Below are positions 15,074-63,480 of a stretch of 64,000 nt of DNA, piece after piece. A program made the translations under genes and the position numbers. How positions within the stretch are numbered: position 1 is the stretch's first letter; each line of letters begins with the position of its first letter. The DNA is taken from contig JBAZKF010000001.1 of assembly GCA_041650895.1 (NCBI GenBank), positions 273,685-337,684 on the forward strand, written 5' to 3'. The notes under the pieces were generated by a model that was not told the DNA's origin, did no database searches, and saw only the letters and a program-made list of their open reading frames with translations. The DNA comes from Patescibacteria group bacterium (GTDB lineage: Bacteria > Patescibacteriota > Patescibacteriia > 2-01-FULL-39-33).

Positions 15074-15684
15074 TTTATCAATGCTTTAAATGAATTCTTT
15101 ATGTCAGTAAACTGATTTCTTTGAACGGTATACCTTTGATCAGAAACATACTGACTTTGATACATTGCAAAAACATAATTATTGTTTTCGCCAATATAAG
15201 CGTTAAGATCTCTTTCGCCATTTACAGGATCTTTTTTCATTAATCCCCAAGTTTCTTTCGTATAAATACCAATCGTGAATATATCCGACCAACCAGGCAT
15301 ACCAAAAGAAGCATAGGTTCTACCGGCTCTATCCCCGATTGAAACCGTATATCCCGCCCAATCTTTAGGCAACTGCAATGAAAAACCATAAATCTGATTT
15401 GAATAAGCAATACCAACAGCATCTATAACCGAAGTTAATGGGGCTGCGGTACTAGCTGAAGTATTTATGGGAATACCGGTTACTGATGATTGATCATTCA
15501 AGCCGGCAGCCTGTTGATAGTTTAATCCCTCGATCTTAGCAGATAATAAGCTAATTTCTGAGATTACTTCTTGTCGTAAACCATTAACTTGATTGACTTG
15601 ACTGATATATAACACCAAACCGCCTAAAATCATAATAATAGCTACTACTGATAGAGAAACAATCAAAATCTTTTTGTTTTCCAT
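15070..15684 (-). CDS. Membrane-anchored or secreted hypothetical protein; its C-terminal domain is paralogous to that of the 14197-15018 product
   Basis: N-terminal TM/signal; C-terminal 'YGFSLQLPKDW...NSFKALIK' parallels 'YGLEFQYPKNW...STIKFIK' in the neighbouring protein. Confidence 0.5.
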   Translation of the reverse strand: MENKKILIVSLSVVAIIMILGGLVLYISQVNQVNGLRQEVISEISLLSAKIEGLNYQQAAGLNDQSSVTGIPINTSASTAAPLTSVIDAVGIAYSNQIYGFSLQLPKDWAGYTVSIGDRAGRTYASFGMPGWSDIFTIGIYTKETWGLMKKDPVNGERDLNAYIGENNNYVFAMYQSQYVSDQRYTVQRNQFTDIKNSFKALIK

Positions 15685-15754
15685 AAATACTATTTAATTA
15701 TTAATAATGATTATTAGTTATGCGCAAGCCATAAATCTTACACTGTAACGCCAT

Positions 15755-17209
15755 TTAATCCGCGGTTTGCGTTTGTTCGCCGTAAAGATTGACGCCTTCT
15801 TTTTCGGCGCGAGCTTCTACGCTGTCGGCAATCCTAATATTAGCTTCGCGCAGAGCCTTCAAACTGGTATAATTGGGCGCGTCCATCATCAAATCGCGGC
15901 TGTCGCCGGTTTTGGGGAAGACAATAACCTCGCGGATATTGGGTTCGTTGTGCAATATCGCCAACAATCTGTCAACACCGGGGGCGATACCGCCATGAGG
16001 CGGGGCGCCGAATTCAAACGCTTCCAGCATATGGCCGAAACGGGTTTTAATTTCATTCTCACCGACGCCCAAAAGCTCAAAAATTTTCTGCTGGATATCA
16101 TGCAGATGGATCCTGATGGAGCCGCCGGCGACTTCAAAGCCGTTTAAGACCAAATCATAGCCGTAAGCGCGCCATTTCTTGGGGTCGTCGGGATACTTTT
16201 CCATATCTTCGCGGTTAGGCATGGTAAAAGGGTGATGGGAAGCGACTAATTTGTTCTCTGTCTCACTATACTTAAACATAGGCGGATCAATCAGCCACAT
16301 GAACGCCAAAACATCCGGATCATTCTTGTCGGGACGCAAATCAGGCTTATCCGTGCCGTATTTATCCAGGCATTCGGCATAAGTCAAACGCGGAAACGGC
16401 TTGGCTAAAATCTTTTTATTAGGGTAGAGTTTTCCCACTAATTCAATCATCATCGGCTCAATCAAGTTGAAAATATCTTCCTGCTCAATAAAACTCATTT
16501 CAATATCCAATTGTGTGAATTCAGCTTGACGATCCCCGCGAGTGTCCTCATCGCGAAAACATCTGGCGATCTGAAAATATTTTTCCGCGCCGGCTACCAT
16601 CAATAATTGCTTGAACTGCTGGGGCGATTGCGGCAAAACATAAAACTTGCCGGGCCACTGGCGCGACGGCACCAAAAATTCCCGAGCGCCCTCGGGCGTG
16701 CCCTTGGTCAAAATCGGCGTTTCTATTTCCAAAAATCCTTGCTGTTCCAGATAATCACGGAAAAACTTATTAACCTTGGAACGCATAATCATGTTTTCGG
16801 TCATACGTTGAGAACGTAGGTCCAAATAGCGGTATTTGAGGCGTAATTCTTCATTTATTTCAATCGTATCTTGATTAATTTCAAACGGCGTCGTCTTGGC
16901 TTCATTAATGATTTCCAATCCGGTTGCGAGCATTTCTACGCCGCCTGTCGGCAACTTATCGTTGACCATATTGGCCGGCCGCTCATTGATTTGGCCGGTA
17001 ATAGCCACTACGTATTCGCTACGCAACTTCTGCGCCAACTCATGCGCCTCTTTATTGGATGGAATAAAAACGACTTGCAACAAGCCGCTGCGGTCGCGCA
17101 CGTCAATAAACACTAACTTGCCATGGTCGCGACGCGTATGCACCCAACCCTTGACCAGCACTTCTTGCCCTGCTTTATTTACCACCTCCTGGATCGGCGT
17201 TCTTGTCAT
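15755..17209 (-). CDS. aspS: Aspartyl-tRNA synthetase (bacterial type, lacking the GAD insertion domain)
   Basis: N-terminal OB fold, class II motifs 'FRDED..R..EFTQLD', 'GGSIRIH', 'GAPPHGGIAPGVDRL'. 'DKPDLR' is followed almost directly by 'HHPFTMP', so the roughly 130-aa GAD domain is absent. Confidence 0.9.
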   Translation of the reverse strand: MTRTPIQEVVNKAGQEVLVKGWVHTRRDHGKLVFIDVRDRSGLLQVVFIPSNKEAHELAQKLRSEYVVAITGQINERPANMVNDKLPTGGVEMLATGLEIINEAKTTPFEINQDTIEINEELRLKYRYLDLRSQRMTENMIMRSKVNKFFRDYLEQQGFLEIETPILTKGTPEGAREFLVPSRQWPGKFYVLPQSPQQFKQLLMVAGAEKYFQIARCFRDEDTRGDRQAEFTQLDIEMSFIEQEDIFNLIEPMMIELVGKLYPNKKILAKPFPRLTYAECLDKYGTDKPDLRPDKNDPDVLAFMWLIDPPMFKYSETENKLVASHHPFTMPNREDMEKYPDDPKKWRAYGYDLVLNGFEVAGGSIRIHLHDIQQKIFELLGVGENEIKTRFGHMLEAFEFGAPPHGGIAPGVDRLLAILHNEPNIREVIVFPKTGDSRDLMMDAPNYTSLKALREANIRIADSVEARAEKEGVNLYGEQTQTAD

Positions 17210-49444: not shown

Positions 49445-50188
49445 TTATAATAATAGACCGAGATACCAGTTGATTATTCTTTCGCCCCAAAATAGGGCGA
49501 CTAAAGTGCCCAAAGCCAGAAAAGTGCCGAAAGCGACGGGCGTTTTGGCTTTGGCTTTGCCTGAAATTAACAATACAACAGAGACTATAGCGCCAACAAT
49601 ATAAGCAACCAGCAGGGCGACTATTAGAAGCGGCCAGCCTAAAACCGCGCCCATTAAAGCACCCAAGCGCAGATCACCGCCGCCGATCCATCGGCCGGAA
49701 GAAACCAAGTATTGCAAACCAAAAAAACCAAAACCAACTAGAACAGCAAAAATTAAAAGCCACAAGTTACTGCCTAAAAGCAAACTAAAAATAAACAACA
49801 AAATAATAGCGGGAATAGTTACCTGATCAGGAATTAGTTGCCAACGCAAATCATAAACGAAAACGATAATCAGGATTGAAACCAATATTATGTCCCTAAG
49901 AAAAACTAACAACTGAGGATGGAGAATATAGGCTAAAACAAAAAGCAATCCGCCAGCTAATTCCACAATAGGGTATTGCCAGGAGATTGGTTGTCGGCAA
50001 TACCGGCAACGACCGCGCAACAAAATAAAACTTAACAGCGGCACTAAATCTTTTGGCTGTAATCCAGCTTGGCAGTGCGGGCACTTTGACCGGCCAAAAA
50101 CAATCGGTTCGCCGGAATGCAGACGCCAAACAACGACATTAAGGAAACTGCCGATGACTAACCCGATAATAAAAATAAATAAAATCAT
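49445..50188 (-). CDS. pilD: Prepilin peptidase (A24 family)
   Basis: N-terminal Zn 'CPHCQ...CRYCRQ', polytopic membrane, conserved Asp positions. Confidence 0.85.
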   Translation of the reverse strand: MILFIFIIGLVIGSFLNVVVWRLHSGEPIVFGRSKCPHCQAGLQPKDLVPLLSFILLRGRCRYCRQPISWQYPIVELAGGLLFVLAYILHPQLLVFLRDIILVSILIIVFVYDLRWQLIPDQVTIPAIILLFIFSLLLGSNLWLLIFAVLVGFGFFGLQYLVSSGRWIGGGDLRLGALMGAVLGWPLLIVALLVAYIVGAIVSVVLLISGKAKAKTPVAFGTFLALGTLVALFWGERIINWYLGLLL

Positions 50189-50568
50189 TTCACGCCGTTT
50201 TTAGTCCAAATATAACCGCCGGCCTTGAGACCGCCGATGCCACGTTCTAAATAAAAATTAATCTCATAATCGTTTTCACCCAAGGCGCCGACCAAATACT
50301 TATAATTGCCCCGGTTAACGGGATCAAGCGGAGTGGTTCGATTATTAAAGCACTGGCTGACAACCATGCCGGGATTACAATTGACAACTTGATAAGTATT
50401 ATACTTAGAAAAGTATTCGGCCATAATATCTTGCCAGACTTTTAAACCTTTAAGACGTTCAAAGTCCCGCGCTTGACCGCTATAAAACCAAACAGCCAAA
50501 CCGGTAAAAACCAGCCCCAAGATTAGCAACATGGAATAAACAATGATTTTATAAGATAATCGTCGCAT
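50185..50568 (-). CDS. Membrane-anchored hypothetical protein in the pilus gene cluster
   Basis: Single N-terminal TM; start overlaps the pilD stop. Confidence 0.45.
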   Translation of the reverse strand: MRRLSYKIIVYSMLLILGLVFTGLAVWFYSGQARDFERLKGLKVWQDIMAEYFSKYNTYQVVNCNPGMVVSQCFNNRTTPLDPVNRGNYKYLVGALGENDYEINFYLERGIGGLKAGGYIWTKNGVK

Positions 50569-50651: not shown

Positions 50652-51062
50652 TTAATTAGCATTACATTGTCCGGCTGCAGCAGGCACGGCTGAATTCAAT
50701 CCTCTAAAGCCATTAGTATCAGCGCAGAAATAGGAGTCGCTGGTACATAGTTGAGCATAATAAGCAACAACAGATGCCGTAGTGGAGGGCGAAGCGGTCC
50801 AACTGACCTTACCGGCGGCAGTGCAAGGATAAGTGCCCAATTTTGCGATAACAGAATCCCTATAAGTATCAGAGTCAACGCTTTCGCCGTTAGCTCTGGC
50901 AATTTCTGTCTGAGTAGAAGCAGTAGCAACATTAGATTGAACCTTAGCGTCATTAGCTTTGTTTCTAGCGTCCTGTAAATAAACAATAGCGACCGAGGAC
51001 AAGATGCCGATAATGGCAATAACCACTAATAATTCAATTAAAGTAAAACCTTTCTTATTCAT
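50652..51062 (-). CDS. pilA: Major type IV pilin
   Basis: 'MNKKGFTLIELLVVIAIIGILSSVAIVYL' canonical T4a pilin N-terminus, C-terminal Cys pair. Confidence 0.85.
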   Translation of the reverse strand: MNKKGFTLIELLVVIAIIGILSSVAIVYLQDARNKANDAKVQSNVATASTQTEIARANGESVDSDTYRDSVIAKLGTYPCTAAGKVSWTASPSTTASVVAYYAQLCTSDSYFCADTNGFRGLNSAVPAAAGQCNAN

Positions 51063-51249: not shown

Positions 51250-52461
51250 CTAGAAGGCCGACGACAATTGCCACATCGGCAACATAACAGCAATAACGAA
51301 CAGAGCCACGGCGATTCCCAGGACAATCATAATGATCGGCTCAATCAAGTTAGACAAATTCCGAACTGAATTGTCTATCTCTTTAGAATAAAAATCTGAG
51401 GCTTTATCCAATACTTCTTCCAACTTTCCCGACTCCTCGCCGATACTGATCATATTAGCCACGATTTGGGGTAGATAAGGGCTAGCGGCCAAACTTTCAG
51501 AAATCTGATTACCTTCATTAACGCTCGCAATCGCATCATTAATCATTTCTTCAAACAATTTATTATCAACAACCTCCTTAACCACAGCCAATCCTTGGGC
51601 GATAGGAACGCCGCCTTTAATAAGCGTGGCGAAGCTTTGAGTAAAACGCACGATGTAAATATCTTTAAAAATAGCACCAAAAATTGGAATCTTAAGTTTT
51701 ACCCAATCCAAGAAACGTCTACCCTCCGGCGTCTGCCGGCCAACAAAAAATATGATCAATAAACCGATAGTTAAAAGTACCACCAACCACCAAAAATTCC
51801 TTAAAAAATTAGCCAGATTCATCATTAATCTGGTGATTAACGGAATTTGAGCGCCTGACTCCACCAACATTTTAGTAATACTGGGAATAACAAAAGCCAC
51901 GACAATAAAACCCACCACACCCAGGACCAAGACAATCATAGCTGGATAAATCATCGCACCTCTAACCTTGGATTCCAAATCATAATCTTTCTCTTTTTGG
52001 TCAGCCAAATAATTCATTACTTCAGACAATCGTCCCGAAGTTTCACCGGAACGCATGATGTTGGCATAAAATTTAGTAAAAACGTCTGGATAAATTTCCA
52101 AAGCTGAGGAAAAGCTTGACCCACCCTCCACTTCGTCTGCCACTTTGTCAATTACGTTACGTAAGTAGTCATTCTTGGTTTGTCGGACCAAAATACGCAA
52201 ACCCCGAACTAATGGAATGTTGGCTTCCACCATTACCGCCAACTGACGAAAGAATATGACTAAATCTTTACTACTAACTCGTTTAAAAAATAAAAATTTC
52301 TGCCAATACCAAACACTTAAAGTGGCTTGAGGACGAATATCAATAATGGCCAACTTTTTATCCAACAAAAAATTGGCTACGGCTTCGGCAGAAACCGCAT
52401 CCATGGCTGCTTCAACGATATTGCCTCGGCGATCCTTAGTCTTATACTTGTATATCGGCAT
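51250..52461 (-). CDS. pilC: Type IV pilus platform protein PilC (GspF family)
   Basis: Two GspF repeats, three TM segments, about 400 aa. Confidence 0.9.
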   Translation of the reverse strand: MPIYKYKTKDRRGNIVEAAMDAVSAEAVANFLLDKKLAIIDIRPQATLSVWYWQKFLFFKRVSSKDLVIFFRQLAVMVEANIPLVRGLRILVRQTKNDYLRNVIDKVADEVEGGSSFSSALEIYPDVFTKFYANIMRSGETSGRLSEVMNYLADQKEKDYDLESKVRGAMIYPAMIVLVLGVVGFIVVAFVIPSITKMLVESGAQIPLITRLMMNLANFLRNFWWLVVLLTIGLLIIFFVGRQTPEGRRFLDWVKLKIPIFGAIFKDIYIVRFTQSFATLIKGGVPIAQGLAVVKEVVDNKLFEEMINDAIASVNEGNQISESLAASPYLPQIVANMISIGEESGKLEEVLDKASDFYSKEIDNSVRNLSNLIEPIIMIVLGIAVALFVIAVMLPMWQLSSAF

Positions 52462-52473
52462 GATTGATAAAAA

Positions 52474-53538
52474 TTAATTTTTCCCCAAACCTTTAGGATC
52501 CGGAGAATGTTCCTGCGCCTCCTCGTAAGTAATCAGATTAGCCCTTAACGCCTCGCCCAAGGCCTGATTAAAAGATATCATACCCTCACGGCGCGAGGTG
52601 GCAATAATATTGTCTAATTGGTTAAGATTGCCGCTGGCAATAGTCGCTCTAACTGTGTCATTAACCAAAAGAATTTCGCAAACCGGGACTACTCCACCGC
52701 CGATTTTGGGTAAGAGCTTCTGACAAACCACAGCTTTCAAGGCGCCGGACAATAAATCACGGATACGATCCTGATCAAAAGCCGGAAAATAATCAAGAAT
52801 TGCAGTTAACGACCTGGCGCAAGTATCAGCGGCCATAGTAGTAATCACTAAAGCGCTACCACGAGCTATTTCTAAAACCGGCGGAATAATAGAGGCGCTG
52901 TTTAACTGTTCTAAGAACAATACATCGCCGCTTTCTTCTTGAAAATATTTTAGGGCATCAGCATAACTATTAGTATCCTGTCCCACTTGACGTTGCTCAA
53001 TAACGCTTTTTTTATTGGCAAAAATGTATTCAATCGGATCTTCAATAGTGATAATATACTTCTTGCGACTGACATTTATCTCTTCGATCATAGAGGCTGC
53101 GGTAGAAGTACGACCAGAACCAAAGGCGCCGGAAACAATAACCAATCCTCGATTTAACTTAATTAGTTCCTTGACTGCCGCCGGCATACCCAACTGACTT
53201 AAAGTAACAATCGTTACTGGCACATAACGAAAAGTAGAAGACAAAAAACCCTTCTGATAGAACAAATTTATCTTAAAACGAAGATTCTTATCAAAGTTAT
53301 ACGTTAATATTATTTCCCTCTCCTTGGCCAGCTTTTCCCGCTGTAGTGGCGTTAGTAATGCCTCAGCCAGTTTAATCATGAATTCTGCCGTAATAACACC
53401 CTTATCCTCAAGATAACGCAATTCACCGTTAACTTTTATAATCGGAAAATGGCCGACGGTAAAATGCCAATCGGAAGCGCTAGCTGTTATTCCTTCTGTT
53501 AATACCTGCCTTAAAAACAAATCCTGACTGGTATCCAT
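52474..53538 (-). CDS. pilT: PilT-like ATPase with degenerate catalytic motifs (likely pseudo-ATPase)
   Basis: PilT/PilU architecture with Asp-box 'IEDPIEY'. Walker A is 'GAFGSGRTST' (Lys to Arg), Walker B region is 'DVLFLEQLNS' where GEMRD is expected, and His-box is 'ITTMAAD' with no His. Confidence 0.7.
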   Translation of the reverse strand: MDTSQDLFLRQVLTEGITASASDWHFTVGHFPIIKVNGELRYLEDKGVITAEFMIKLAEALLTPLQREKLAKEREIILTYNFDKNLRFKINLFYQKGFLSSTFRYVPVTIVTLSQLGMPAAVKELIKLNRGLVIVSGAFGSGRTSTAASMIEEINVSRKKYIITIEDPIEYIFANKKSVIEQRQVGQDTNSYADALKYFQEESGDVLFLEQLNSASIIPPVLEIARGSALVITTMAADTCARSLTAILDYFPAFDQDRIRDLLSGALKAVVCQKLLPKIGGGVVPVCEILLVNDTVRATIASGNLNQLDNIIATSRREGMISFNQALGEALRANLITYEEAQEHSPDPKGLGKN

Positions 53539-53540
53539 AG

Positions 53541-53918
53541 TTAAGCAATTAACTTTTTAATCTTCTCCACTACTTCGGACGGCATAAAGTGCGCCTTAAT
53601 CAAATAATCTTTGGCACCCAACTTTAATCCCTTTTCCACATCAGATTTTTGGCTTAGGTTAGTCAAAAGAATAACCGGGATTTTCTCCAGTTTACTATCA
53701 GCTTTAAGCGACTTAAGGATGTCAAATCCGCTCATCTTGGGCAAAACCAAATCCAATAAAATTATGTCCGGCGAACCTTTCTTGGCTGTTTCCCAGCCCC
53801 TTTCTCCATCATAAGCCACAGTTACTTTAAATCCTTCCAGGGCAAATTTGGTTTTATACAAATCAGCCAGAAAAACATCGTCCTCCACAATAAGAATGTT
53901 TATTTTCTTGTCTTTCAT
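53541..53918 (-). CDS. Single-domain CheY-like response regulator (PilH/PilG-like) inside the pilus operon
   Basis: Receiver residues D11/D12, D54 (ILLDLV), T82, K104 all present. Confidence 0.85.
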   Translation of the reverse strand: MKDKKINILIVEDDVFLADLYKTKFALEGFKVTVAYDGERGWETAKKGSPDIILLDLVLPKMSGFDILKSLKADSKLEKIPVILLTNLSQKSDVEKGLKLGAKDYLIKAHFMPSEVVEKIKKLIA

Positions 53919-53949: not shown

Positions 53950-55713
53950 TTATGTTACTTGCATCACTTCTTCGATCGTGGTCAAGCCCATCATTGATTT
54001 CATTATACCGTCCTGCATTAAGGTGACAAAATTCTGTTTCTTTAACTCCGCCATAACCACCTCGTTAGAAAAATTCTCTTTGGCGATAATATTTCGCAAT
54101 TCCGGAGTAATAGAGATAATTTCACTAATCACTGTCCGACCGGCAAAACCGCTCTTACCGCAAAGATCACAGCCAACTGCCCGATAGAACTTGACTTGTG
54201 GCACATACTGCTTAAGCAATTCTGGCGGAATCTGTTTAATTTCGCCTTCTACTTGTTTAAGTAATGGCCCAGGCAACGACACTTCTTGACGGCAACTGGG
54301 GCAGACTTTCCTGACTAAACGTTGCGCCATGATTAAATTAAGCGTGGAAGACAGCAAAAATGGCTCGGCTTTCATATCAATCATGCGTGGAATAGCGCCC
54401 CAAGCATTGTTAGTATGCAAAGTAGAAAAAACCAAGTGCCCGGTCAACCCGGCATGAATGACTAATTCGGCTGTTTCACTGTCACGAATTTCTCCCACCA
54501 TGATAATATTGGGGTCTTGACGCAAAATCGCCCTCAAACCGGAAGCAAAAGTAAAACCAACATCCGGATTTATTTGAGATTGATTAATGCCGGCGATAGA
54601 ATATTCTATCGGATCCTCCAAGGTAGTAACATTACTGTTTTCTGTTTTGATTTGGTTCAAAATGGAATATAAGGTTGTCGTTTTGCCTGAACCGGTCGGA
54701 CCGGTTAAAAGTATCAGACCAAACGGCTTGTTGGCATTCTGGTTTAAAATTTCTATTTCATTATCAAGAAAACCAAGCTGGGCCAAATTAGGAACGCCGG
54801 CGGAAGTGTCCAAAACGCGAATTACCACTTTCTCTGAATTAAGCATGGGCAGAACGGAAATACGCAAATCCACTTCCTGACCATCTATTTGCGAACGAAT
54901 ACGCCCATCTTGAGGTAGGCGCGTTTCATCCAGTTTTAAATTAGCCATGACCTTGATACGCGAAACTACGGCATTATGAATATAAGCCGGCAAAGTCAGC
55001 GAGGTGTGCAAGATACCATCCACGCGATAACGCACCCGGCTTTCATTACGACCCGGCTCAATATGAATATCTGAAGCGTTGCCCTCAATGCCATGACGAA
55101 TAATAACGGAGACGATTTTGGCTACGGGGGCGGCTTTTATTTTTTCTTCCAGGGCGGCTCCACCTTCCAATACCACTCCCTCCTCTTTCTCCGCATATTT
55201 CTCTTCCGCCGATTGTAAGGCGGTGCCTATTTCCTTAGTAAAACCGCTGTAACTTTTAATAAAACGACGAAAATCTTCTAATAAGATTACAAAGTAACTA
55301 ACCTGAAAACCGGAAGTCTTAGACCAAAATTCAATCGCTTCATTAGCCATAAAGTCACCTGGATCAACCAAACCGACGCTGACTTTCTTGCCTTCCTGTG
55401 CAAATGCAATCGCTTTATAATTTTCTGCCACTTTCTGAGATAGCAAATTAAGAGTTTCCGACTTAATCTGGCTGGTTGCCAGGTCAGCCACCGGTAAATT
55501 AAATACCTCGCCTTTTATCTTAAGCAGATCATTACGATTAAAGACATTCCGATCCATTAATTCCTCTTCAATCATCTTTTTACCCCTATTCGCCGCAATC
55601 AAAACTTCTTCTAAGATAGACAGATTGACCAGATTATGGCTGGCCAGATAATTCTTCATTTTTTCGTTGTATTGGATATCGGGCATAAATTTTATTCCCC
55701 CAATTCGCGACAC
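53950..55713 (-). CDS. pilB: Type IV pilus assembly ATPase PilB (GspE family)
   Basis: Walker A 'GPTGSGKTTT', Asp-box 'LEDPIEY', Walker B 'IIMVGEIRD', His-box 'FSTLHTN', C-terminal Zn 'CPSCR...GCDLCG'. Confidence 0.92.
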   Translation of the reverse strand: MSRIGGIKFMPDIQYNEKMKNYLASHNLVNLSILEEVLIAANRGKKMIEEELMDRNVFNRNDLLKIKGEVFNLPVADLATSQIKSETLNLLSQKVAENYKAIAFAQEGKKVSVGLVDPGDFMANEAIEFWSKTSGFQVSYFVILLEDFRRFIKSYSGFTKEIGTALQSAEEKYAEKEEGVVLEGGAALEEKIKAAPVAKIVSVIIRHGIEGNASDIHIEPGRNESRVRYRVDGILHTSLTLPAYIHNAVVSRIKVMANLKLDETRLPQDGRIRSQIDGQEVDLRISVLPMLNSEKVVIRVLDTSAGVPNLAQLGFLDNEIEILNQNANKPFGLILLTGPTGSGKTTTLYSILNQIKTENSNVTTLEDPIEYSIAGINQSQINPDVGFTFASGLRAILRQDPNIIMVGEIRDSETAELVIHAGLTGHLVFSTLHTNNAWGAIPRMIDMKAEPFLLSSTLNLIMAQRLVRKVCPSCRQEVSLPGPLLKQVEGEIKQIPPELLKQYVPQVKFYRAVGCDLCGKSGFAGRTVISEIISITPELRNIIAKENFSNEVVMAELKKQNFVTLMQDGIMKSMMGLTTIEEVMQVT

Positions 55714-57928: not shown

Positions 57929-59035
57929 TTATTCTATTTCTCGCATAGCCAAACCGACAGGAACAGCAAAACGTGCGCCGACGCGGTCTAAAATAGGCTT
58001 CAAATCAACCGGATAAACTACTCGCGCCCAAGGATCACCAATAACCGTGTTAATATTAAAGGTGTTTGACAAATAACCCGGTAAATGGCCCAAAAGAGCC
58101 GTACCGCCAGTCAAAATCAACTTATCAATTTTGGTATTATTGCTATCCTGATATAAATTAACAGTATAGCTGATTTCATTTAAAATTGGAGCAAAAGATT
58201 TTTCCACAGTTTGAGGCAAAGAGTTTTCGCTTGTTTCCGAATCTAATGACAAATCCTGCTTAAATTGTTCAGCACGATCTAAATTGACATTTAAAGCCAT
58301 AGAAATAGCCTTAGTCAAAGCTTGGCCGCCCAATTCCAAAGAACGACTCAGTACTGGCACTCCCTTGGAAACCACGACTAAACTCGAAGTTGCCGCTCCC
58401 ATATCAATAATCATTACCGTTGATTTATCATCACCCAAAAGCGAACGAACCAAGGCAAAACTCTCAGTCTCCAGACTAAGTAAGGTCAAACCACACTTAG
58501 CAAAAATATCAATGTATTTCTTAATCAACTGTTTACTGGCTCCAGTTAGAAGCACTCGAACATTCTTTTTAGGTTTAGAAAATATTTTTTTCAAAGGATT
58601 AGTTTCTTGGCTTATTTCGGGCAATTTATCCGTATCACCGCCAACCTCAAATTCCTCTACGATCTTCCAATCCAAAATTATTTCTTCCAGTGGCATAGGA
58701 ATAATCTTTTTAGCTTCCCAACTTATTGCCGCAGCTAAATCTTTCTTAGATAATGAAGGCAACGTCAGGATAGAAGTAAAGACAGAAAAATTAGGCAAGG
58801 CGGCTACGGCCTTGTTAGCTGTTACTTTTGATTTTTTACAAACTTCCTTAAGGATAGCAGCAGTTTCTTCAACATCAGAGATTATTCCCGATTCCGAGAT
58901 GTTAGTCGGGCTTTTTTCTGTGAAACCGTAAGTAACCAAACGCGGCCGACCTGAATAGTTAGCTAATTCCACGACCTTAATTGAGGAAGATCCCAGATCG
59001 ACACCGAGATAATTGTTTTTCTTTGATCCAAACAT
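57929..59035 (-). CDS. pilM: PilM actin-like ATPase
   Basis: 'YLGVDLGSSSIKVVEL' and a second 'IIDMGAATSSLVVV' actin-fold phosphate loop. Confidence 0.85.
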   Translation of the reverse strand: MFGSKKNNYLGVDLGSSSIKVVELANYSGRPRLVTYGFTEKSPTNISESGIISDVEETAAILKEVCKKSKVTANKAVAALPNFSVFTSILTLPSLSKKDLAAAISWEAKKIIPMPLEEIILDWKIVEEFEVGGDTDKLPEISQETNPLKKIFSKPKKNVRVLLTGASKQLIKKYIDIFAKCGLTLLSLETESFALVRSLLGDDKSTVMIIDMGAATSSLVVVSKGVPVLSRSLELGGQALTKAISMALNVNLDRAEQFKQDLSLDSETSENSLPQTVEKSFAPILNEISYTVNLYQDSNNTKIDKLILTGGTALLGHLPGYLSNTFNINTVIGDPWARVVYPVDLKPILDRVGARFAVPVGLAMREIE

Positions 59036-59080: not shown

Positions 59081-60763
59081 TCAATACTGATAATCACGAA
59101 TTACAGGCAAATTTTCCGCCAAAGCTTTAAGTCCGGGTGGCGGATTAGCGATTAAACGTCCATCATAAATTATCCGTTCCGATCCTTGAATTAATTTAGA
59201 ATAAGTACGCCGGAAGTCAAAAGCTTTAGCGATAATCAAACCCAGTACCACCAGCTGATCCTGGCTTTCGTTAGAGAAAAAGACGCCACAACTATTGGCT
59301 ACATATTTAGGATAATCAACAGATGACCCGCTTTCCGCTTGACATAAGATATTGTCCTTGCCTAAAAGCAAGTAAGCTCCGACAATCTGGGTTACTGCTG
59401 GATCAACTATGACATCTCCCTTAACTACCCAAGCCACCGAGCCGAGTTTTTTTAAGTCATCCGGCAAAGAACCATTGCTATAACCAAAATTGCTTTTAAT
59501 ATTCAAATCGCCATTAACCACTATCAAGCCATTGCCTCTTTGGCCATCACCGCCGTTAGTAATAACGAATCCGTTATCAATGGTCAGATTACCATTAATA
59601 ACATACACGCTATTATTAAAAACTTCGCTTTTTTTCCAAGTCGTTGCATTGTTATAGATATTCAAAACTTGATCATATTTGTTATAGCGAGTATTGCCAA
59701 TTCTCTTGTATTCCGTGGTCAAGCCGACCAAATCAATCTGTCCCAAAGCATTCCTATAAACACCATTCTGAAACGTCGGGTAAGCAATGGCAACGTCAGA
59801 AAAAAACGGCTGTTGGCAATTAGTGGAAGTAAAACTGTAGACATCCTTAGCAAAAATACAGTAAGTGGCGTTACGACCCTTTTCAAACCTTTGCCTGATA
59901 TAATTAGAACCATAAACTGAACCAAACTGCGTTTGCAACCAAGGATAAACAATCTCGGCCGCGCCATTAAATTCCACCCAGCCGGCGCCAACCAAATTGG
60001 TAACATCACCGTTCCAACCCCAACCCAGAATTGTACCGTTAGCTCCATTGACTACCGTACCGTATTTTTTACAGCCGCCGGTGCAACCACTGTTACAAAC
60101 AATACGACTGGCAGTGCCTAAGGGATTAGTTGAAGTCTGACAGCCGTTGCAATTAAAACAGATTGAGCCGCTACCGGCGCTAGTTGAAGTAATATTGGCG
60201 TCAGGAATATTCGCCCCATCAACCCTAACACGGGCAAAACAAGTACGACAATTTAATGCTCCATCTTCATTATTGGTATTGCAATCATAACAGGCTTGAC
60301 CGACGCCGTTAGCCAAGGAACCACTATCCACAGTACTACCCAAATGCAAATAACCGTCACCGCCTAAAGAAACAACCCCGGCCCAACCGGTAATCTTCTT
60401 GGATATTGGATCATAACTGGCATTCCAACCATCATCAAACGATGGAGTACCGCCGATACCGGAACTAGAGCAAGTAAAACCGAAACAAACCCAACCCACA
60501 TATTCTGACCACCCATAACCGACTAAATTATTATTGCTATCCAACTGGACTTTATACATCTTTGCGTCTCCACTTTCTGGAAACTCCGGATTCTGGTAAT
60601 TCAATGATATCCAACCGTAATTATCGCTCCAAAGCCAGCCGGCTATGTCGTAGGCCACATCTGTTTCCTGCATAAAAGCCAACCGACAAGCCAACACTCC
60701 GGTCAAAATAATAATGGCCGTAAACATGACGAGTGATCCGTATTTAAAAACATGATTAGTCAT
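59081..60763 (-). CDS. Secreted Cys- and Trp-rich protein with GW-type repeats (pilus-associated or adhesin candidate)
   Basis: N-terminal signal/TM; recurring 'GW..S..YGWIS', 'GYGWSEYVGWV', 'GWGWNGD...GAGWVEF'; many Cys; start overlaps the stop of the upstream gene (TAATG). Confidence 0.5.
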   Translation of the reverse strand: MTNHVFKYGSLVMFTAIIILTGVLACRLAFMQETDVAYDIAGWLWSDNYGWISLNYQNPEFPESGDAKMYKVQLDSNNNLVGYGWSEYVGWVCFGFTCSSSGIGGTPSFDDGWNASYDPISKKITGWAGVVSLGGDGYLHLGSTVDSGSLANGVGQACYDCNTNNEDGALNCRTCFARVRVDGANIPDANITSTSAGSGSICFNCNGCQTSTNPLGTASRIVCNSGCTGGCKKYGTVVNGANGTILGWGWNGDVTNLVGAGWVEFNGAAEIVYPWLQTQFGSVYGSNYIRQRFEKGRNATYCIFAKDVYSFTSTNCQQPFFSDVAIAYPTFQNGVYRNALGQIDLVGLTTEYKRIGNTRYNKYDQVLNIYNNATTWKKSEVFNNSVYVINGNLTIDNGFVITNGGDGQRGNGLIVVNGDLNIKSNFGYSNGSLPDDLKKLGSVAWVVKGDVIVDPAVTQIVGAYLLLGKDNILCQAESGSSVDYPKYVANSCGVFFSNESQDQLVVLGLIIAKAFDFRRTYSKLIQGSERIIYDGRLIANPPPGLKALAENLPVIRDYQY

Positions 60764-63480
60764 TATAGATTATCAAGTTGTTTCCAAGAGCAAACGGAGG
60801 CTGTCGTTCTAATGCAACCGCAAAAATGACCGGCATTACCAGTGGCGATATACTTAATACTCCCTTCTTGGGTAGAACAAGTACAAGTACCAGAACAAGA
60901 GTTGCCACTACTGGTTCTAAAACGAACCATGCCGTTTACATCCAACTTTTGCGTCGGCGCTACAGTGCCTATCCCTACATTGCCTCCGGTTTGCAATATC
61001 ATTTGATCAGCATTGTTTTCTCTGAAATATATATTTCTGCCGGAAGGACGATTAACATAAAGATTAGTATTATCAGGCGATGACAATAAGTTATAAGTGC
61101 CTTGAGAAATTTCAGTTCCTGATAATTGCAAAGCCATCCAGGCGCCGCTTTGCGAGCTGTCCGGCCACGGACCTATAACCGCATATCCCCCTGCCTTTTC
61201 ATTAATAGAGCGTCCAACCATCAAACCCGTCCCACCCCTAAAAACACCTGCCCAACCATTATTAGTATCAGAGCTACCCGAGATTGCTGTTCCGTTTTCC
61301 GTTCGTCCTTGTATTCCAGTCCCTCCTGGACTGTTGCCATATACGCCGATACCTTCACTGCCAGTAGATATGCCCAACACTCCTGCTGTATACCCCTCAG
61401 CTATAACGCCAAAAGAAAACTCCAACCCTGATGTGATATGGCTGTTTTTAACATAAAGCGTAGCACCATCGCCCTGAGTGATACCATAAGGTGATTTATT
61501 ATCGCCTACAACGCTTAAGGTGGATATTGGACTGCTGGTTCCAATACCTATCTTTCCATTGGACAAGAAAGTCACCACGCTATTTGAAGGGGTATTATCA
61601 CCGGTCGCCAAAACCAAGTTGGCGGAATTAGCCGGACGATACAACCACCATAATTCTTGAGAGCTTGTAACCGTGCCAACAGACCACTTCAAACCGTTAG
61701 AATAATTAGTAGTATTAGTGTTAATATCAACAAAAACATCTTTATTGACAATTGCCGGACGTGAAGTAACTATTGAATGGTTAGAAACAACCAGTGATGA
61801 TAAGGGCGCCCAAGTTCCGATTCCGACGTAAGCATTTTCACTCCTAATTTTCATCGCCGGTATGCTATCGCCCCAGCCATGCACAGTAGAAGGATCGGTT
61901 CTACCGACATAGAAATCAAACCCTCTCGCGGCCTCATTTGTTAATGATGCGGTGTACCCTATGGCCCCAGCCTCATCTCTATAATTGCCAGCTCCCATAA
62001 CACTAAATTCAATACCTGAATCACCACTGGGATTCCAAGCGCCAGCCCCGCTTTCCGTAATGGCCATTGCCGAAGCCGGATAATAGGTCGGCCCAGAACC
62101 TATATGTAATCGTTTCTGCGGATCAGTATTATTTATACCCACCATCCCCGCTTGATTAATGGTTGCCCTATCTACTCCACCTCCCCAAATATTCAAACTA
62201 TCTGCTGTGCCAGGATAACCACTTATTCCAGTATTGCGAGTATATATAGACCAATGCTCGTTACCAATGCCATATTGCAACTGTAACTCCGGGTTATTAA
62301 CCTTGTCAGTAATGCGCACTCTAGCTGTCTTAGCGCTAACAGGAGCTGCTACTTCTAGCATTTCAGCGGGGACCTCAACACCAATGCCCACCATAGCATT
62401 AAAAGCTGTTGTGCCAAAATCAATAACAGACAAAAGCGGTATACTACCACTGGAATCCACTATCTTCATAGCATAACCCAACAAATTAGCCGATTTAATT
62501 AAAAAACGATGATTTGCCAACGTAGCCGTACCAACAGCCACCCGGCCATTAGCATTATCAATAATCAAAGCTGAAGTACCGGTAACATTAGTGCCATTAG
62601 CGGGATAATAAGCGGCTTGACCGGCCAAACCATAATTGACTCCACCACCAGTACTACCTCCTGTGCCACAAGCTGACGCCGTAGCAGAAATCTGACCGGT
62701 AGCGCTGGCCTGCAAACAACGACTCCCACTACCAGATAGACTGCTTGCCGTTATTGCACCGTTGACTTGTAAACCAGTAGAACTGACTACGCCAGCCACA
62801 TCCAATCTAGTAAGAGGATTATTTATGCCAATACCAATATTACCGTTCTGCTTGATAGCCAGACGATCATTGCCACCGCCCCAAATCCTAAAAGCATCTT
62901 CAGTCTGATTATTATAAATACCCCAGTGACCATTAACATCACTAGAATACTGCAATTGAATCTCGGGATTTTTGGTATCATCAAAAACTCGCAACCAGGT
63001 GGCAGTAACAACGCTACTAGGTTTTTTTACCACTAAAGTAGCAATAGGAGCTGAGTCATTTATACCGACATTACCGTTATCAAAAATAGAAGAATTACCT
63101 AGTGTGTTAGTGCCGGTAAATTTAGATACATAATTAACCGTACCACTAATTCCTCCGGATGATGGTAAAGTAGAAGTACAAACCAGTTTAGTCCCACTCC
63201 AACCAACCAAGGAAGCAATACTGCAGTTATCAGGAGTAACTGTTAATGTATTCCATCTGCCAGAAATGACATCGCCGCTAAAAAGTGTTGACTGATTAAG
63301 TGGCGCCGCAACATTGCCATTAGGCGGATCATTTGTAGGACCAGTCCAGGCTAAAACTGGGGTAAATAAGACTAAAAATAAAGACAGGCCGCTCACGACT
63401 GAAATCGCGACCCCAAAAAACTTAATGGGCTGTTTTAACAGCATATTTTTGTCACCTTTAATTTTGCTTATGGAGAACAA
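60763..63480 (-). CDS. Giant secreted protein (905 aa) with six or more Gly-rich 'N(V/I)GIGT..P...L.V.G' repeats of the kind found in tail-fibre domain proteins
   Basis: Signal anchor; repeats 'VGINDSAPIATLVV', 'NGNIGIGINNPLTRLDVAG', 'AGMVGINNTDPQKRLHIG', 'YVGIGTWAPLSSLVVS', 'NGKIGIGTSSPISTLSVVG', 'GGNVGIGTVAPTQKLDVNG'; first gene of the pilus operon. Confidence 0.55.
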   Translation of the reverse strand: MFSISKIKGDKNMLLKQPIKFFGVAISVVSGLSLFLVLFTPVLAWTGPTNDPPNGNVAAPLNQSTLFSGDVISGRWNTLTVTPDNCSIASLVGWSGTKLVCTSTLPSSGGISGTVNYVSKFTGTNTLGNSSIFDNGNVGINDSAPIATLVVKKPSSVVTATWLRVFDDTKNPEIQLQYSSDVNGHWGIYNNQTEDAFRIWGGGNDRLAIKQNGNIGIGINNPLTRLDVAGVVSSTGLQVNGAITASSLSGSGSRCLQASATGQISATASACGTGGSTGGGVNYGLAGQAAYYPANGTNVTGTSALIIDNANGRVAVGTATLANHRFLIKSANLLGYAMKIVDSSGSIPLLSVIDFGTTAFNAMVGIGVEVPAEMLEVAAPVSAKTARVRITDKVNNPELQLQYGIGNEHWSIYTRNTGISGYPGTADSLNIWGGGVDRATINQAGMVGINNTDPQKRLHIGSGPTYYPASAMAITESGAGAWNPSGDSGIEFSVMGAGNYRDEAGAIGYTASLTNEAARGFDFYVGRTDPSTVHGWGDSIPAMKIRSENAYVGIGTWAPLSSLVVSNHSIVTSRPAIVNKDVFVDINTNTTNYSNGLKWSVGTVTSSQELWWLYRPANSANLVLATGDNTPSNSVVTFLSNGKIGIGTSSPISTLSVVGDNKSPYGITQGDGATLYVKNSHITSGLEFSFGVIAEGYTAGVLGISTGSEGIGVYGNSPGGTGIQGRTENGTAISGSSDTNNGWAGVFRGGTGLMVGRSINEKAGGYAVIGPWPDSSQSGAWMALQLSGTEISQGTYNLLSSPDNTNLYVNRPSGRNIYFRENNADQMILQTGGNVGIGTVAPTQKLDVNGMVRFRTSSGNSCSGTCTCSTQEGSIKYIATGNAGHFCGCIRTTASVCSWKQLDNL

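Follow-up and report, generated by a model that had tools for sequence, protein, structure and literature searches.

A 64,000-nucleotide stretch of a Patescibacteria genome (positions 273,685 to 337,684 of contig JBAZKF010000001.1, assembly GCA_041650895.1; hereafter the window) carries a type IV pilus operon in which the slot of the retraction ATPase gene pilT is occupied by an open reading frame (ORF) that we refer to as pilT*. Its product, PilT*, belongs to the PilT lineage by descent and fold but lacks the residues that define a PilT-like ATPase. Judging from the sequence, the site keeps what it needs to hold a Mg–nucleotide but has lost what it needs to hydrolyse it. As this pseudo-ATPase signature is both extensive and fixed in evolution, a non-motor role is the most economical reading, and PilT* probably serves not as a motor but as a switch or scaffold that binds nucleotide. 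A full-text literature search returned no description of a PilT without its catalytic residues, in Patescibacteria or elsewhere. A motif study of the candidate phyla radiation (CPR) found the Walker A and B boxes well conserved, but in PilB and PilT of Saccharibacteria, and the Saccharibacteria loci sampled here also encode canonical PilT. A PilT that has become fixed naturally as a pseudo-ATPase across a clade appears to be new.

Nucleotide-binding site of PilT*

We placed the residues of PilT* in Geobacter metallireducens PilB (GmPilB) numbering by profile–profile alignment (hhalign) and the 5tsg chain, took residue roles from McCallum et al. 2017 and 2019 (PMC5424180, PMC6858323), and verified all motif coordinates by translation (Table 1). 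The Walker A lysine, the catalytic glutamate, the two arginine fingers and the Asp-box glutamate have been reported as completely conserved in this family, and the His-box histidine as highly conserved (PMC5424180). The original prediction for this gene, made from the DNA alone, was that the P-loop lysine is an arginine, that the catalytic glutamate aligns to a glutamine and that the His-box histidine is missing. All three substitutions hold (Arg143, Gln211 and Ala236) in an alignment with solved PilT structures that contains no gap from Walker A to the His box, and the adjoining PilB, which had been called fully canonical, is so in every motif, both arginine fingers included.

We looked for a shifted alignment that restores the lysine, glutamate and histidine, and none occurs. 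There is no lysine in the P-loop segment and no histidine in the His-box segment, so shifting the alignment cannot recover the catalytic residues. The only acidic neighbour is Glu210, at the Walker B glycine position; treating it as the catalytic glutamate through a one-residue shift was rejected, since all homologues are ungapped from Asp205 to the His box. The losses go beyond those first noted, and also take in H229, T227, R89 (finger 1), T139, R201, R213, R246 and the AIRNLIRE motif. The retained part of the site, which would hold Mg–nucleotide, comprises the P-loop glycines and Ser/Thr, Glu170, arginine finger 2, Gln182 and Arg183.

Fold and family membership

PilT* aligns over residues 4–351, from one end to the other, with Aquifex aeolicus PilT (2ewv; E = 2.9e-73); its match to Geobacter PilT4 likewise covers the whole length (E = 7e-62). 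An AlphaFold2 model built from a 93-sequence alignment has a mean predicted local distance difference test (pLDDT) score of 93.5 and a predicted template modelling (pTM) score of 0.90. It shows the two-domain architecture of the family, an N2 domain (N2D) followed by a RecA-like C-terminal domain, and in Foldseek it superposes on G. metallireducens PilT4 (GmPilT4; 6ojy/6ojx) with a template modelling (TM) score of 0.91 and a root-mean-square deviation of 2.1 Å over 346 columns; PilU, DotB and PilB score lower than GmPilT4.

Profile searches place the protein in the same family and at a distance from its typical members. PilT* matches Pfam PF00437 (T2SSE) over residues 9–279 with 51 bits against a cut-off of 24.9, and reaches 292.2 bits against NCBIfam TIGR01420 (PilT/PilU), under the curated cut-off of 319.1; a canonical Patescibacteria PilT scores 447.6 bits. 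Of the residue set of the PilT/VirB11-like superfamily, R104 and E170 are kept and four positions are changed (K143R, E211Q, R89K and H236A). Where PilT has AIRNLIRE, PilT* reads TVRATIAS. Nor does it have the features of PilU, namely canonical Walker A, Walker B and His boxes and a place beside a canonical pilT. What is found is the hallmark of a pseudoenzyme, with catalytic residues gone from a fold under purifying selection.

Conservation across relatives

The closest relatives of PilT* come from Candidatus Buchananbacteria and other Patescibacteria, and all of the approximately 90 nearest database homologues read GSGR[ST] and lack the histidine. A residue census of 205 full-length PilT-family proteins comprised 86 canonical proteins, 94 with the Walker A arginine (Arg-type) and 25 that keep the lysine but lack the histidine (Lys-type); the canonical set spans more than 20 phyla and combines CPR sequences with proteins from 80 GTDB genome loci. 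All 86 proteins with the histidine have the lysine and the glutamate as well, with no intermediates seen among the 205, and 97 canonical 50%-identity cluster representatives show the same. In 100% of the 86 canonical PilTs the Walker A residue is lysine, and in 94/94 Arg-type relatives it is arginine. The replacements are themselves conserved in this subfamily (R143 100%, K89 98%, F139 91%, E201 88%, G204 84% and E/D210 84%), and R258, like E201, is a new conserved charged residue. The catalytic-glutamate column of the Arg-type proteins holds E, Q, D and N in 47, 26, 9 and 6%, and AIRNLIRE is degenerate throughout, whereas canonical CPR PilT conserves it.

When 1.84 billion 50%-identity representatives were searched exhaustively with HMMER, the picture widened: among the best 150 matches, 57 are His-less PilT-like proteins of about 355 residues. 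These keep G137, G142, S/T144, E166, E170, R87, Q182 and E288 at 95–100%. Their Walker A position is divided between arginine (53%) and lysine (42%), the position of His236 is taken by N, D, E or S, and the arginine fingers shift to lysine or histidine in the deep divergences. In the wider His-less clade the catalytic-glutamate column reads E, Q, K, S and D in 40, 14, 14, 11 and 7%. Thus the P-loop glycines and the Asp box stay constant while the catalytic columns vary, the pattern expected of a site selected for binding and not for catalysis. A strict K143R/R89K 'charge swap', in which the two changes are coupled, was considered and is unsupported across the broader clade.

The same residues bear on a different reading, in which PilT* is a working retraction ATPase, perhaps slow or tightly regulated, with a re-engineered site where Arg143 stands in for the lysine and Glu210 (or Glu211 in many relatives) would serve Mg binding or water activation. 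The conserved replacements resemble a defined new constellation more than random drift, E170 and R104 are still there as Mg and phosphate ligands, and the gene sits in the pilT slot with no other retraction ATPase visible nearby. However, the catalytic-glutamate column varies freely in both the subfamily and the wider clade, and PilT* itself has at position 211 a glutamine, the classic hydrolysis-trap substitution. Glu210 is not conserved outside the PilT* subfamily, where this position is mostly serine (51%) or glycine (21%). Both His-box histidines and the inter-subunit threonine are lost, and in P. aeruginosa PilT (PaPilT) the H229A change alone kills function (PMC6858323). We therefore regard a re-engineered motor as unlikely, though it is the main rival of a non-motor role.

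A remodelled pocket could also accommodate GTP, (p)ppGpp, a cyclic dinucleotide or some other phosphate ligand, in which case PilT* would be a small-molecule sensor gating pilus dynamics. The P-loop and the Asp box are conserved while the contacts to the gamma-phosphate have changed (K to R, R to K, H to A and T to F), and the new conserved charged residues E201 and R258 would suit such a role. Pfam and NCBIfam scans of PilT*, on the other hand, gave T2SSE/PilT matches only and detected no known second-messenger-binding motif, and plain loss of hydrolysis explains the changes equally well; we consider a ligand sensor quite improbable.

Tandem arrangements occur in the same family. Ten proteins of 700–1000 residues (P0121–P0129 and P0158) contain two tandem PilT modules, at least one of which is degenerate in P0125, P0126, P0129 and P0158 (the N-terminal half of P0129 reads GNRGSGRSCT and LQDRIRF). 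Such tandem-module proteins may be fused pairs of a motor and a pseudo-motor.

Evolutionary origin and selection

A neighbour-joining tree of 146 sequences unites all His-less proteins, Arg-type and Lys-type, in one clade (bootstrap 100/100) that is nested in Patescibacteria PilT as sister to the canonical Patescibacteria PilTs. Within this clade the R and K states are mixed, and a single clade of Arg-type proteins was rejected. The His-less branch has evolved faster, with a mean distance to non-CPR PilT of 1.37 against 0.92 for canonical CPR PilT.

Gene order agrees with the tree. Patescibacteria loci with canonical PilT (L005, L012, L014, L017, L019, L076 and others) are arranged pilM-N-O-x-pilB-pilT-pilC-pilin-pilD, and the window and eight further loci (L001–L004, L006–L008 and L010) have the identical order with PilT* in the pilT slot. 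Because the gene occupies the exact slot of pilT and its clade is nested in or sister to canonical Patescibacteria PilT, pilT* is the positional ortholog of pilT in its lineage, not an extra paralog as had been proposed. It descends orthologously from the PilT retraction ATPase in a large Patescibacteria clade that includes Buchananbacteria, Falkowbacteria and their relatives.

When all six-frame ORFs of the window were searched for another PilT with a family hidden Markov model, PilT* and PilB were the only matches, and no second T2SSE ATPase besides PilB lies within ±10 kb at nine degenerate loci (L001–L004 and L006–L010). A profile of canonical Patescibacteria PilT returned matches of which those listed, mostly from Wolfebacteria and Paceibacterota, include none named Buchananbacteria or Falkowbacteria, a weak negative. 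The matches listed from the GTDB genome scan belong mostly to unrelated phyla and include one close relative, L008.

Another arrangement occurs in the Patescibacteria genome of L009 (10001–12139; JBMOKY010000001.1, a 1.15 Mb contig), where a His-less PilT-like gene (GAFGSGKTTT, DILFISDLSA, no histidine) lies apart from pilB and pilC. It is paired with pilM alone and is placed between pth and mfd; dprA and topA follow downstream. The pairing hints at a functional link between PilT* and PilM.

The signature might in principle mark a decaying, functionless relic of pilT, a pseudogene in progress, given that many catalytic residues are gone and that the branch evolves faster. Against this, the 354-codon frame is intact, the predicted fold is of high confidence, the operon position is conserved, and the clade is wide and ancient, as its share of the top 50%-identity representatives indicates. 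Compared with its 94%-identical orthologue in L001, pilT* has a ratio of nonsynonymous to synonymous substitution rates (dN/dS) of 0.031, close to those of pilB (0.020), pilC (0.014) and the neighbouring receiver gene (0.016) and with ligA at 0.064; pilM falls in the same low range as pilT*, pilB and pilC. The gene is under strong purifying selection, and the relic explanation is effectively refuted. The pseudo-ATPase signature that had been proposed is therefore real and wider than first described, having been fixed by evolution and being neither a sequencing artefact nor decay.

Proposed function of PilT*

We favour, with some reservation, a model in which PilT* is a nucleotide-binding, hydrolysis-impaired hexamer that sits on the PilC/PilM platform in competition with PilB; it would work as a switch, clutch or brake, and the receiver might tune it. 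PilT* would still bind ATP or ADP, with very slow turnover or none, and would be a nucleotide-state-dependent, non-motor occupant of the platform. By competing with or displacing PilB, it would end extension; the fibre would afterwards be held in place or be allowed to depolymerise with no force from ATP. The adjacent phosphorylatable receiver may control it.

Mutant studies are informative here. In PaPilT, E204A and H229A each abolish twitching (PMC6858323). A Walker A lysine-to-arginine change has been described as 'often, but not always' giving ATP binding without hydrolysis (PMC6254361). In Vibrio cholerae, ATPase-dead PilT still functions as a platform adaptor, and the Walker B glutamate mutant is believed to stay fixed in the conformation that binds ATP (PMC6821130).

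Several points weigh against a non-motor switch. Arg143 preserves the positive charge of the P-loop lysine. The subfamily has gained an acid at the Walker B glycine, about half of its members keep the catalytic glutamate, and the site may be remodelled yet still active. In V. cholerae, ATPase-dead PilT without PilU behaves like a pilT deletion (PMC6821130), and a dead PilT would thus need a partner or another role; no PilU-like partner was seen within 10 kb at any locus examined. The receiver accompanies canonical PilT as well, at four Patescibacteria loci, and so does not single out the degenerate form. Elsewhere in the genome, beyond the 64 kb window, there may also be another pilT that is canonical.

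The nucleotide-binding switch could be extended to the whole clade. A class-level branch of Patescibacteria would then lack an ATP-driven retraction motor, its sole PilT would be a non-hydrolysing, nucleotide-sensing switch that, with the receiver, gates the access of PilB to PilC/PilM, and retraction would be passive or driven by PilB in reverse. We put this forward as a speculation that we doubt, to about the degree that we doubt a re-engineered motor.

Comparison with known systems

PilT* shares with the PilTs of type IVa pili (2ewv; 6ojx; P. aeruginosa 3jvv) the two-domain fold, with the TM score given above and 34–36% identity, and resembles them in length, in its slot between pilB and pilC, in the P-loop backbone, in the Asp box and in arginine finger 2. 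It differs from them in replacing the lysine, the glutamate, both histidines, finger 1, the P-loop and TGH threonines and AIRNLIRE. It is like PilU in being a PilT-family protein without the canonical AIRNLIRE (P. aeruginosa PilU 9n32, TM score 0.80–0.82), but PilU normally lies beside a canonical pilT, whereas PilT* has no canonical partner nearby and its catalytic residues are gone. In L037, L048 and L055, pilT is followed by tandem second and third PilT-family genes; these keep the lysine, glutamate and histidine and are presumably PilU-like.

The engineered V. cholerae PilT mutants K136A and E204A are ATPase-dead and still support PilU-driven retraction, which shows that a structural or adaptor role is possible; the E204 mutant, thought to be ATP-locked, resembles the natural glutamate-to-glutamine change of PilT* (PMC6821130). 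However, these are laboratory mutants that need PilU, whereas PilT* is naturally fixed across a clade, carries more substitutions and has no visible PilU.

Outside the family, Walker A lysine-to-arginine variants of ASCE/RecA-like ATPases, among them RecA K72R and Rad51 K191R, usually bind nucleotide without hydrolysing it. The change falls at the same P-loop position as in PilT*, but these are engineered single substitutions, whereas PilT* has a conserved wild-type arginine together with other catalytic losses. FlaH/ArlH of the archaellum and TadZ of the Tad system are poorly hydrolysing, nucleotide-binding accessories of type IV filament machines, and they share with PilT* the concept of a degenerate P-loop protein that regulates or positions a true motor ATPase. 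They belong to unrelated families (KaiC-like and ParA/MinD-like, respectively), whereas PilT* comes from the motor family itself.

Type IV pilus operon and its receiver

The type IV pilus operon of the window lies wholly on the minus strand, with pilT* inside it (Table 1). From 5′ to 3′ it begins with two large unannotated ORFs followed by pilM, a pilN-like gene, a pilO-like gene, a small ORF and pilB, and continues with the receiver, pilT*, pilC, the major pilin gene, a small ORF, pilD, minor pilin genes and ligA. The two large ORFs keep their positions in L001 and L003 and have no Pfam match on record; the 905-residue product has a hydrophobic segment at its N terminus, and both products are candidate pilus-associated surface proteins. 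The 127-residue ORF has the same place in L001–L003 and no family assignment.

Table 1 Features of the pilT* locus and residues of the PilT* nucleotide site (coordinates in the window)
Feature	Coordinates	Strand	PilT* residue	Description
pilT* ORF	52474-53538	-		354 aa, ATG start; PilT-fold protein, nucleotide site remodelled, probably hydrolysis-dead
Arg-finger segment RFKINLFYQKGFLSSTFR	53227-53280	-		Finger 1 lost, finger 2 kept
Arg finger 1, GmPilB R271			89	Lys
Arg finger 2, GmPilB R286			104	Kept as Arg
Walker A / P-loop GAFGSGRTST	53101-53130	-		Canonical GPTGSGKS reads GAFGSGRT; Gly and Ser/Thr kept
P-loop Gly			137, 140, 142	Kept
P-loop Thr			139	Phe
Walker A Lys, GmPilB K331			143	Arg
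P-loop Ser/Thr			144, 145	Kept
Asp box IEDPIEY	53026-53046	-		Intact
Asp-box Glu			166, 170	Kept; E170 is GmPilB E357, Mg2+ ligand (PMC5424180)
Walker B DVLFLEQLNS	52897-52926	-		Canonical DVIFVGEMRD
Walker B Gly			210	Glu; recreates the classical hhhh[D/E] acid
Catalytic Glu, GmPilB E395			211	Gln
Invariant Arg			213	Asn
Invariant Arg			201, 246	Replaced
His-box segment RGSALVITTMAAD	52825-52863	-		Canonical ETGHLVFGTLHTN; TGH reads GSA, TLHTN reads TMAAD
Thr of TGH, GmPilB T411			227	Gly
First His-box His, GmPilB H413			229	Ala
Gamma-phosphate-sensing His, GmPilB H420			236	Ala
PilT-specific AIRNLIRE	52633-52656	-	295-302	TVRATIAS
Arg, Gln, Arg, Asp, Glu			87, 182, 183, 205, 288	Kept
Large ORF	60763-63480	-		905 aa, upstream of pilM
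Large ORF	59081-60763	-		560 aa, upstream of pilM
pilM	57929-59035	-		Actin-like cytoplasmic platform protein; first recognisable pil operon gene
pilB	53950-55713	-		Canonical extension ATPase; GPTGSGKT, EDPIEY, MVGEIRD, TGHLVFSTLHTN, both Arg fingers, Cys4 site; 415 bits
Response regulator	53541-53918	-		CheY-like, single domain, 125 aa, between pilB and pilT*; PF00072, 86.8 bits
pilC	51250-52461	-		Platform protein, directly downstream of pilT*; T2SSF, 217 bits
Major pilin	50652-51062	-		N_methyl on orthologues
Small conserved ORF	50185-50568	-		127 aa, N-terminal transmembrane segment, between major pilin and pilD
pilD	49445-50188	-		Prepilin peptidase; Peptidase_A24 on orthologues

The receiver between pilB and pilT* retains all receiver residues (the DD pair, the phospho-acceptor aspartate, threonine and lysine). 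It occupies this position in 9/9 degenerate loci with upstream context (the window, L001–L004, L006–L008 and L010), and the receiver inserted at this point in many Patescibacteria pil operons carries a conserved C-terminal signature, YLIKAHFxPSEVV. Four Patescibacteria loci with canonical PilT have this insertion too (L011 3522–3887, L013 6260–6625, L022 9517–9918 and L062 9567–9956), and its specificity for degenerate PilT was therefore rejected; the receiver is older than the degeneration and does not serve to diagnose it. A search of the window for a histidine kinase found none. Control of type IV pili by CheY-like proteins, through binding to PilB or in other ways, is known from cyanobacteria and Pseudomonas, and a regulatory link is plausible here as well.

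In the Falkowbacteria-like pil operon of L003, a gene of the bAvd / 23S_rRNA_IVP family (15608–15955) lies within the minor-pilin cluster. Proteins of this type are accessory proteins of diversity-generating retroelements. In the window as a whole, GC skew is below zero in each 2 kb bin from 4 kb on and the minus strand carries nearly all of the long ORFs, consistent with a single replichore with a strong gene-strand bias.

Implications

Type IV pili are seen as central to the CPR lifestyle, in host attachment, twitching and DNA uptake (PMC6744442, PMC9894109, PMC12206443), and genome surveys routinely take the presence of pilT as a sign of a retractile pilus. Annotators can separate PilT* from true PilT by a simple rule, GSGR[ST] together with the absence of a His box. 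The family is also a natural experiment in which evolution has made the field's laboratory K-to-R, E-to-Q and H-to-A mutants, and it opens non-catalytic roles of the PilT hexamer to testing, including platform occupancy, PilB antagonism and adaptor function. If conventional motor function is absent, the retraction, twitching and force inferred from gene presence would be wrong for a large branch of the CPR, and if the doubtful clade-wide extension were true, the DNA uptake and host attachment of these episymbionts would rest on passive or PilB-reversed retraction.

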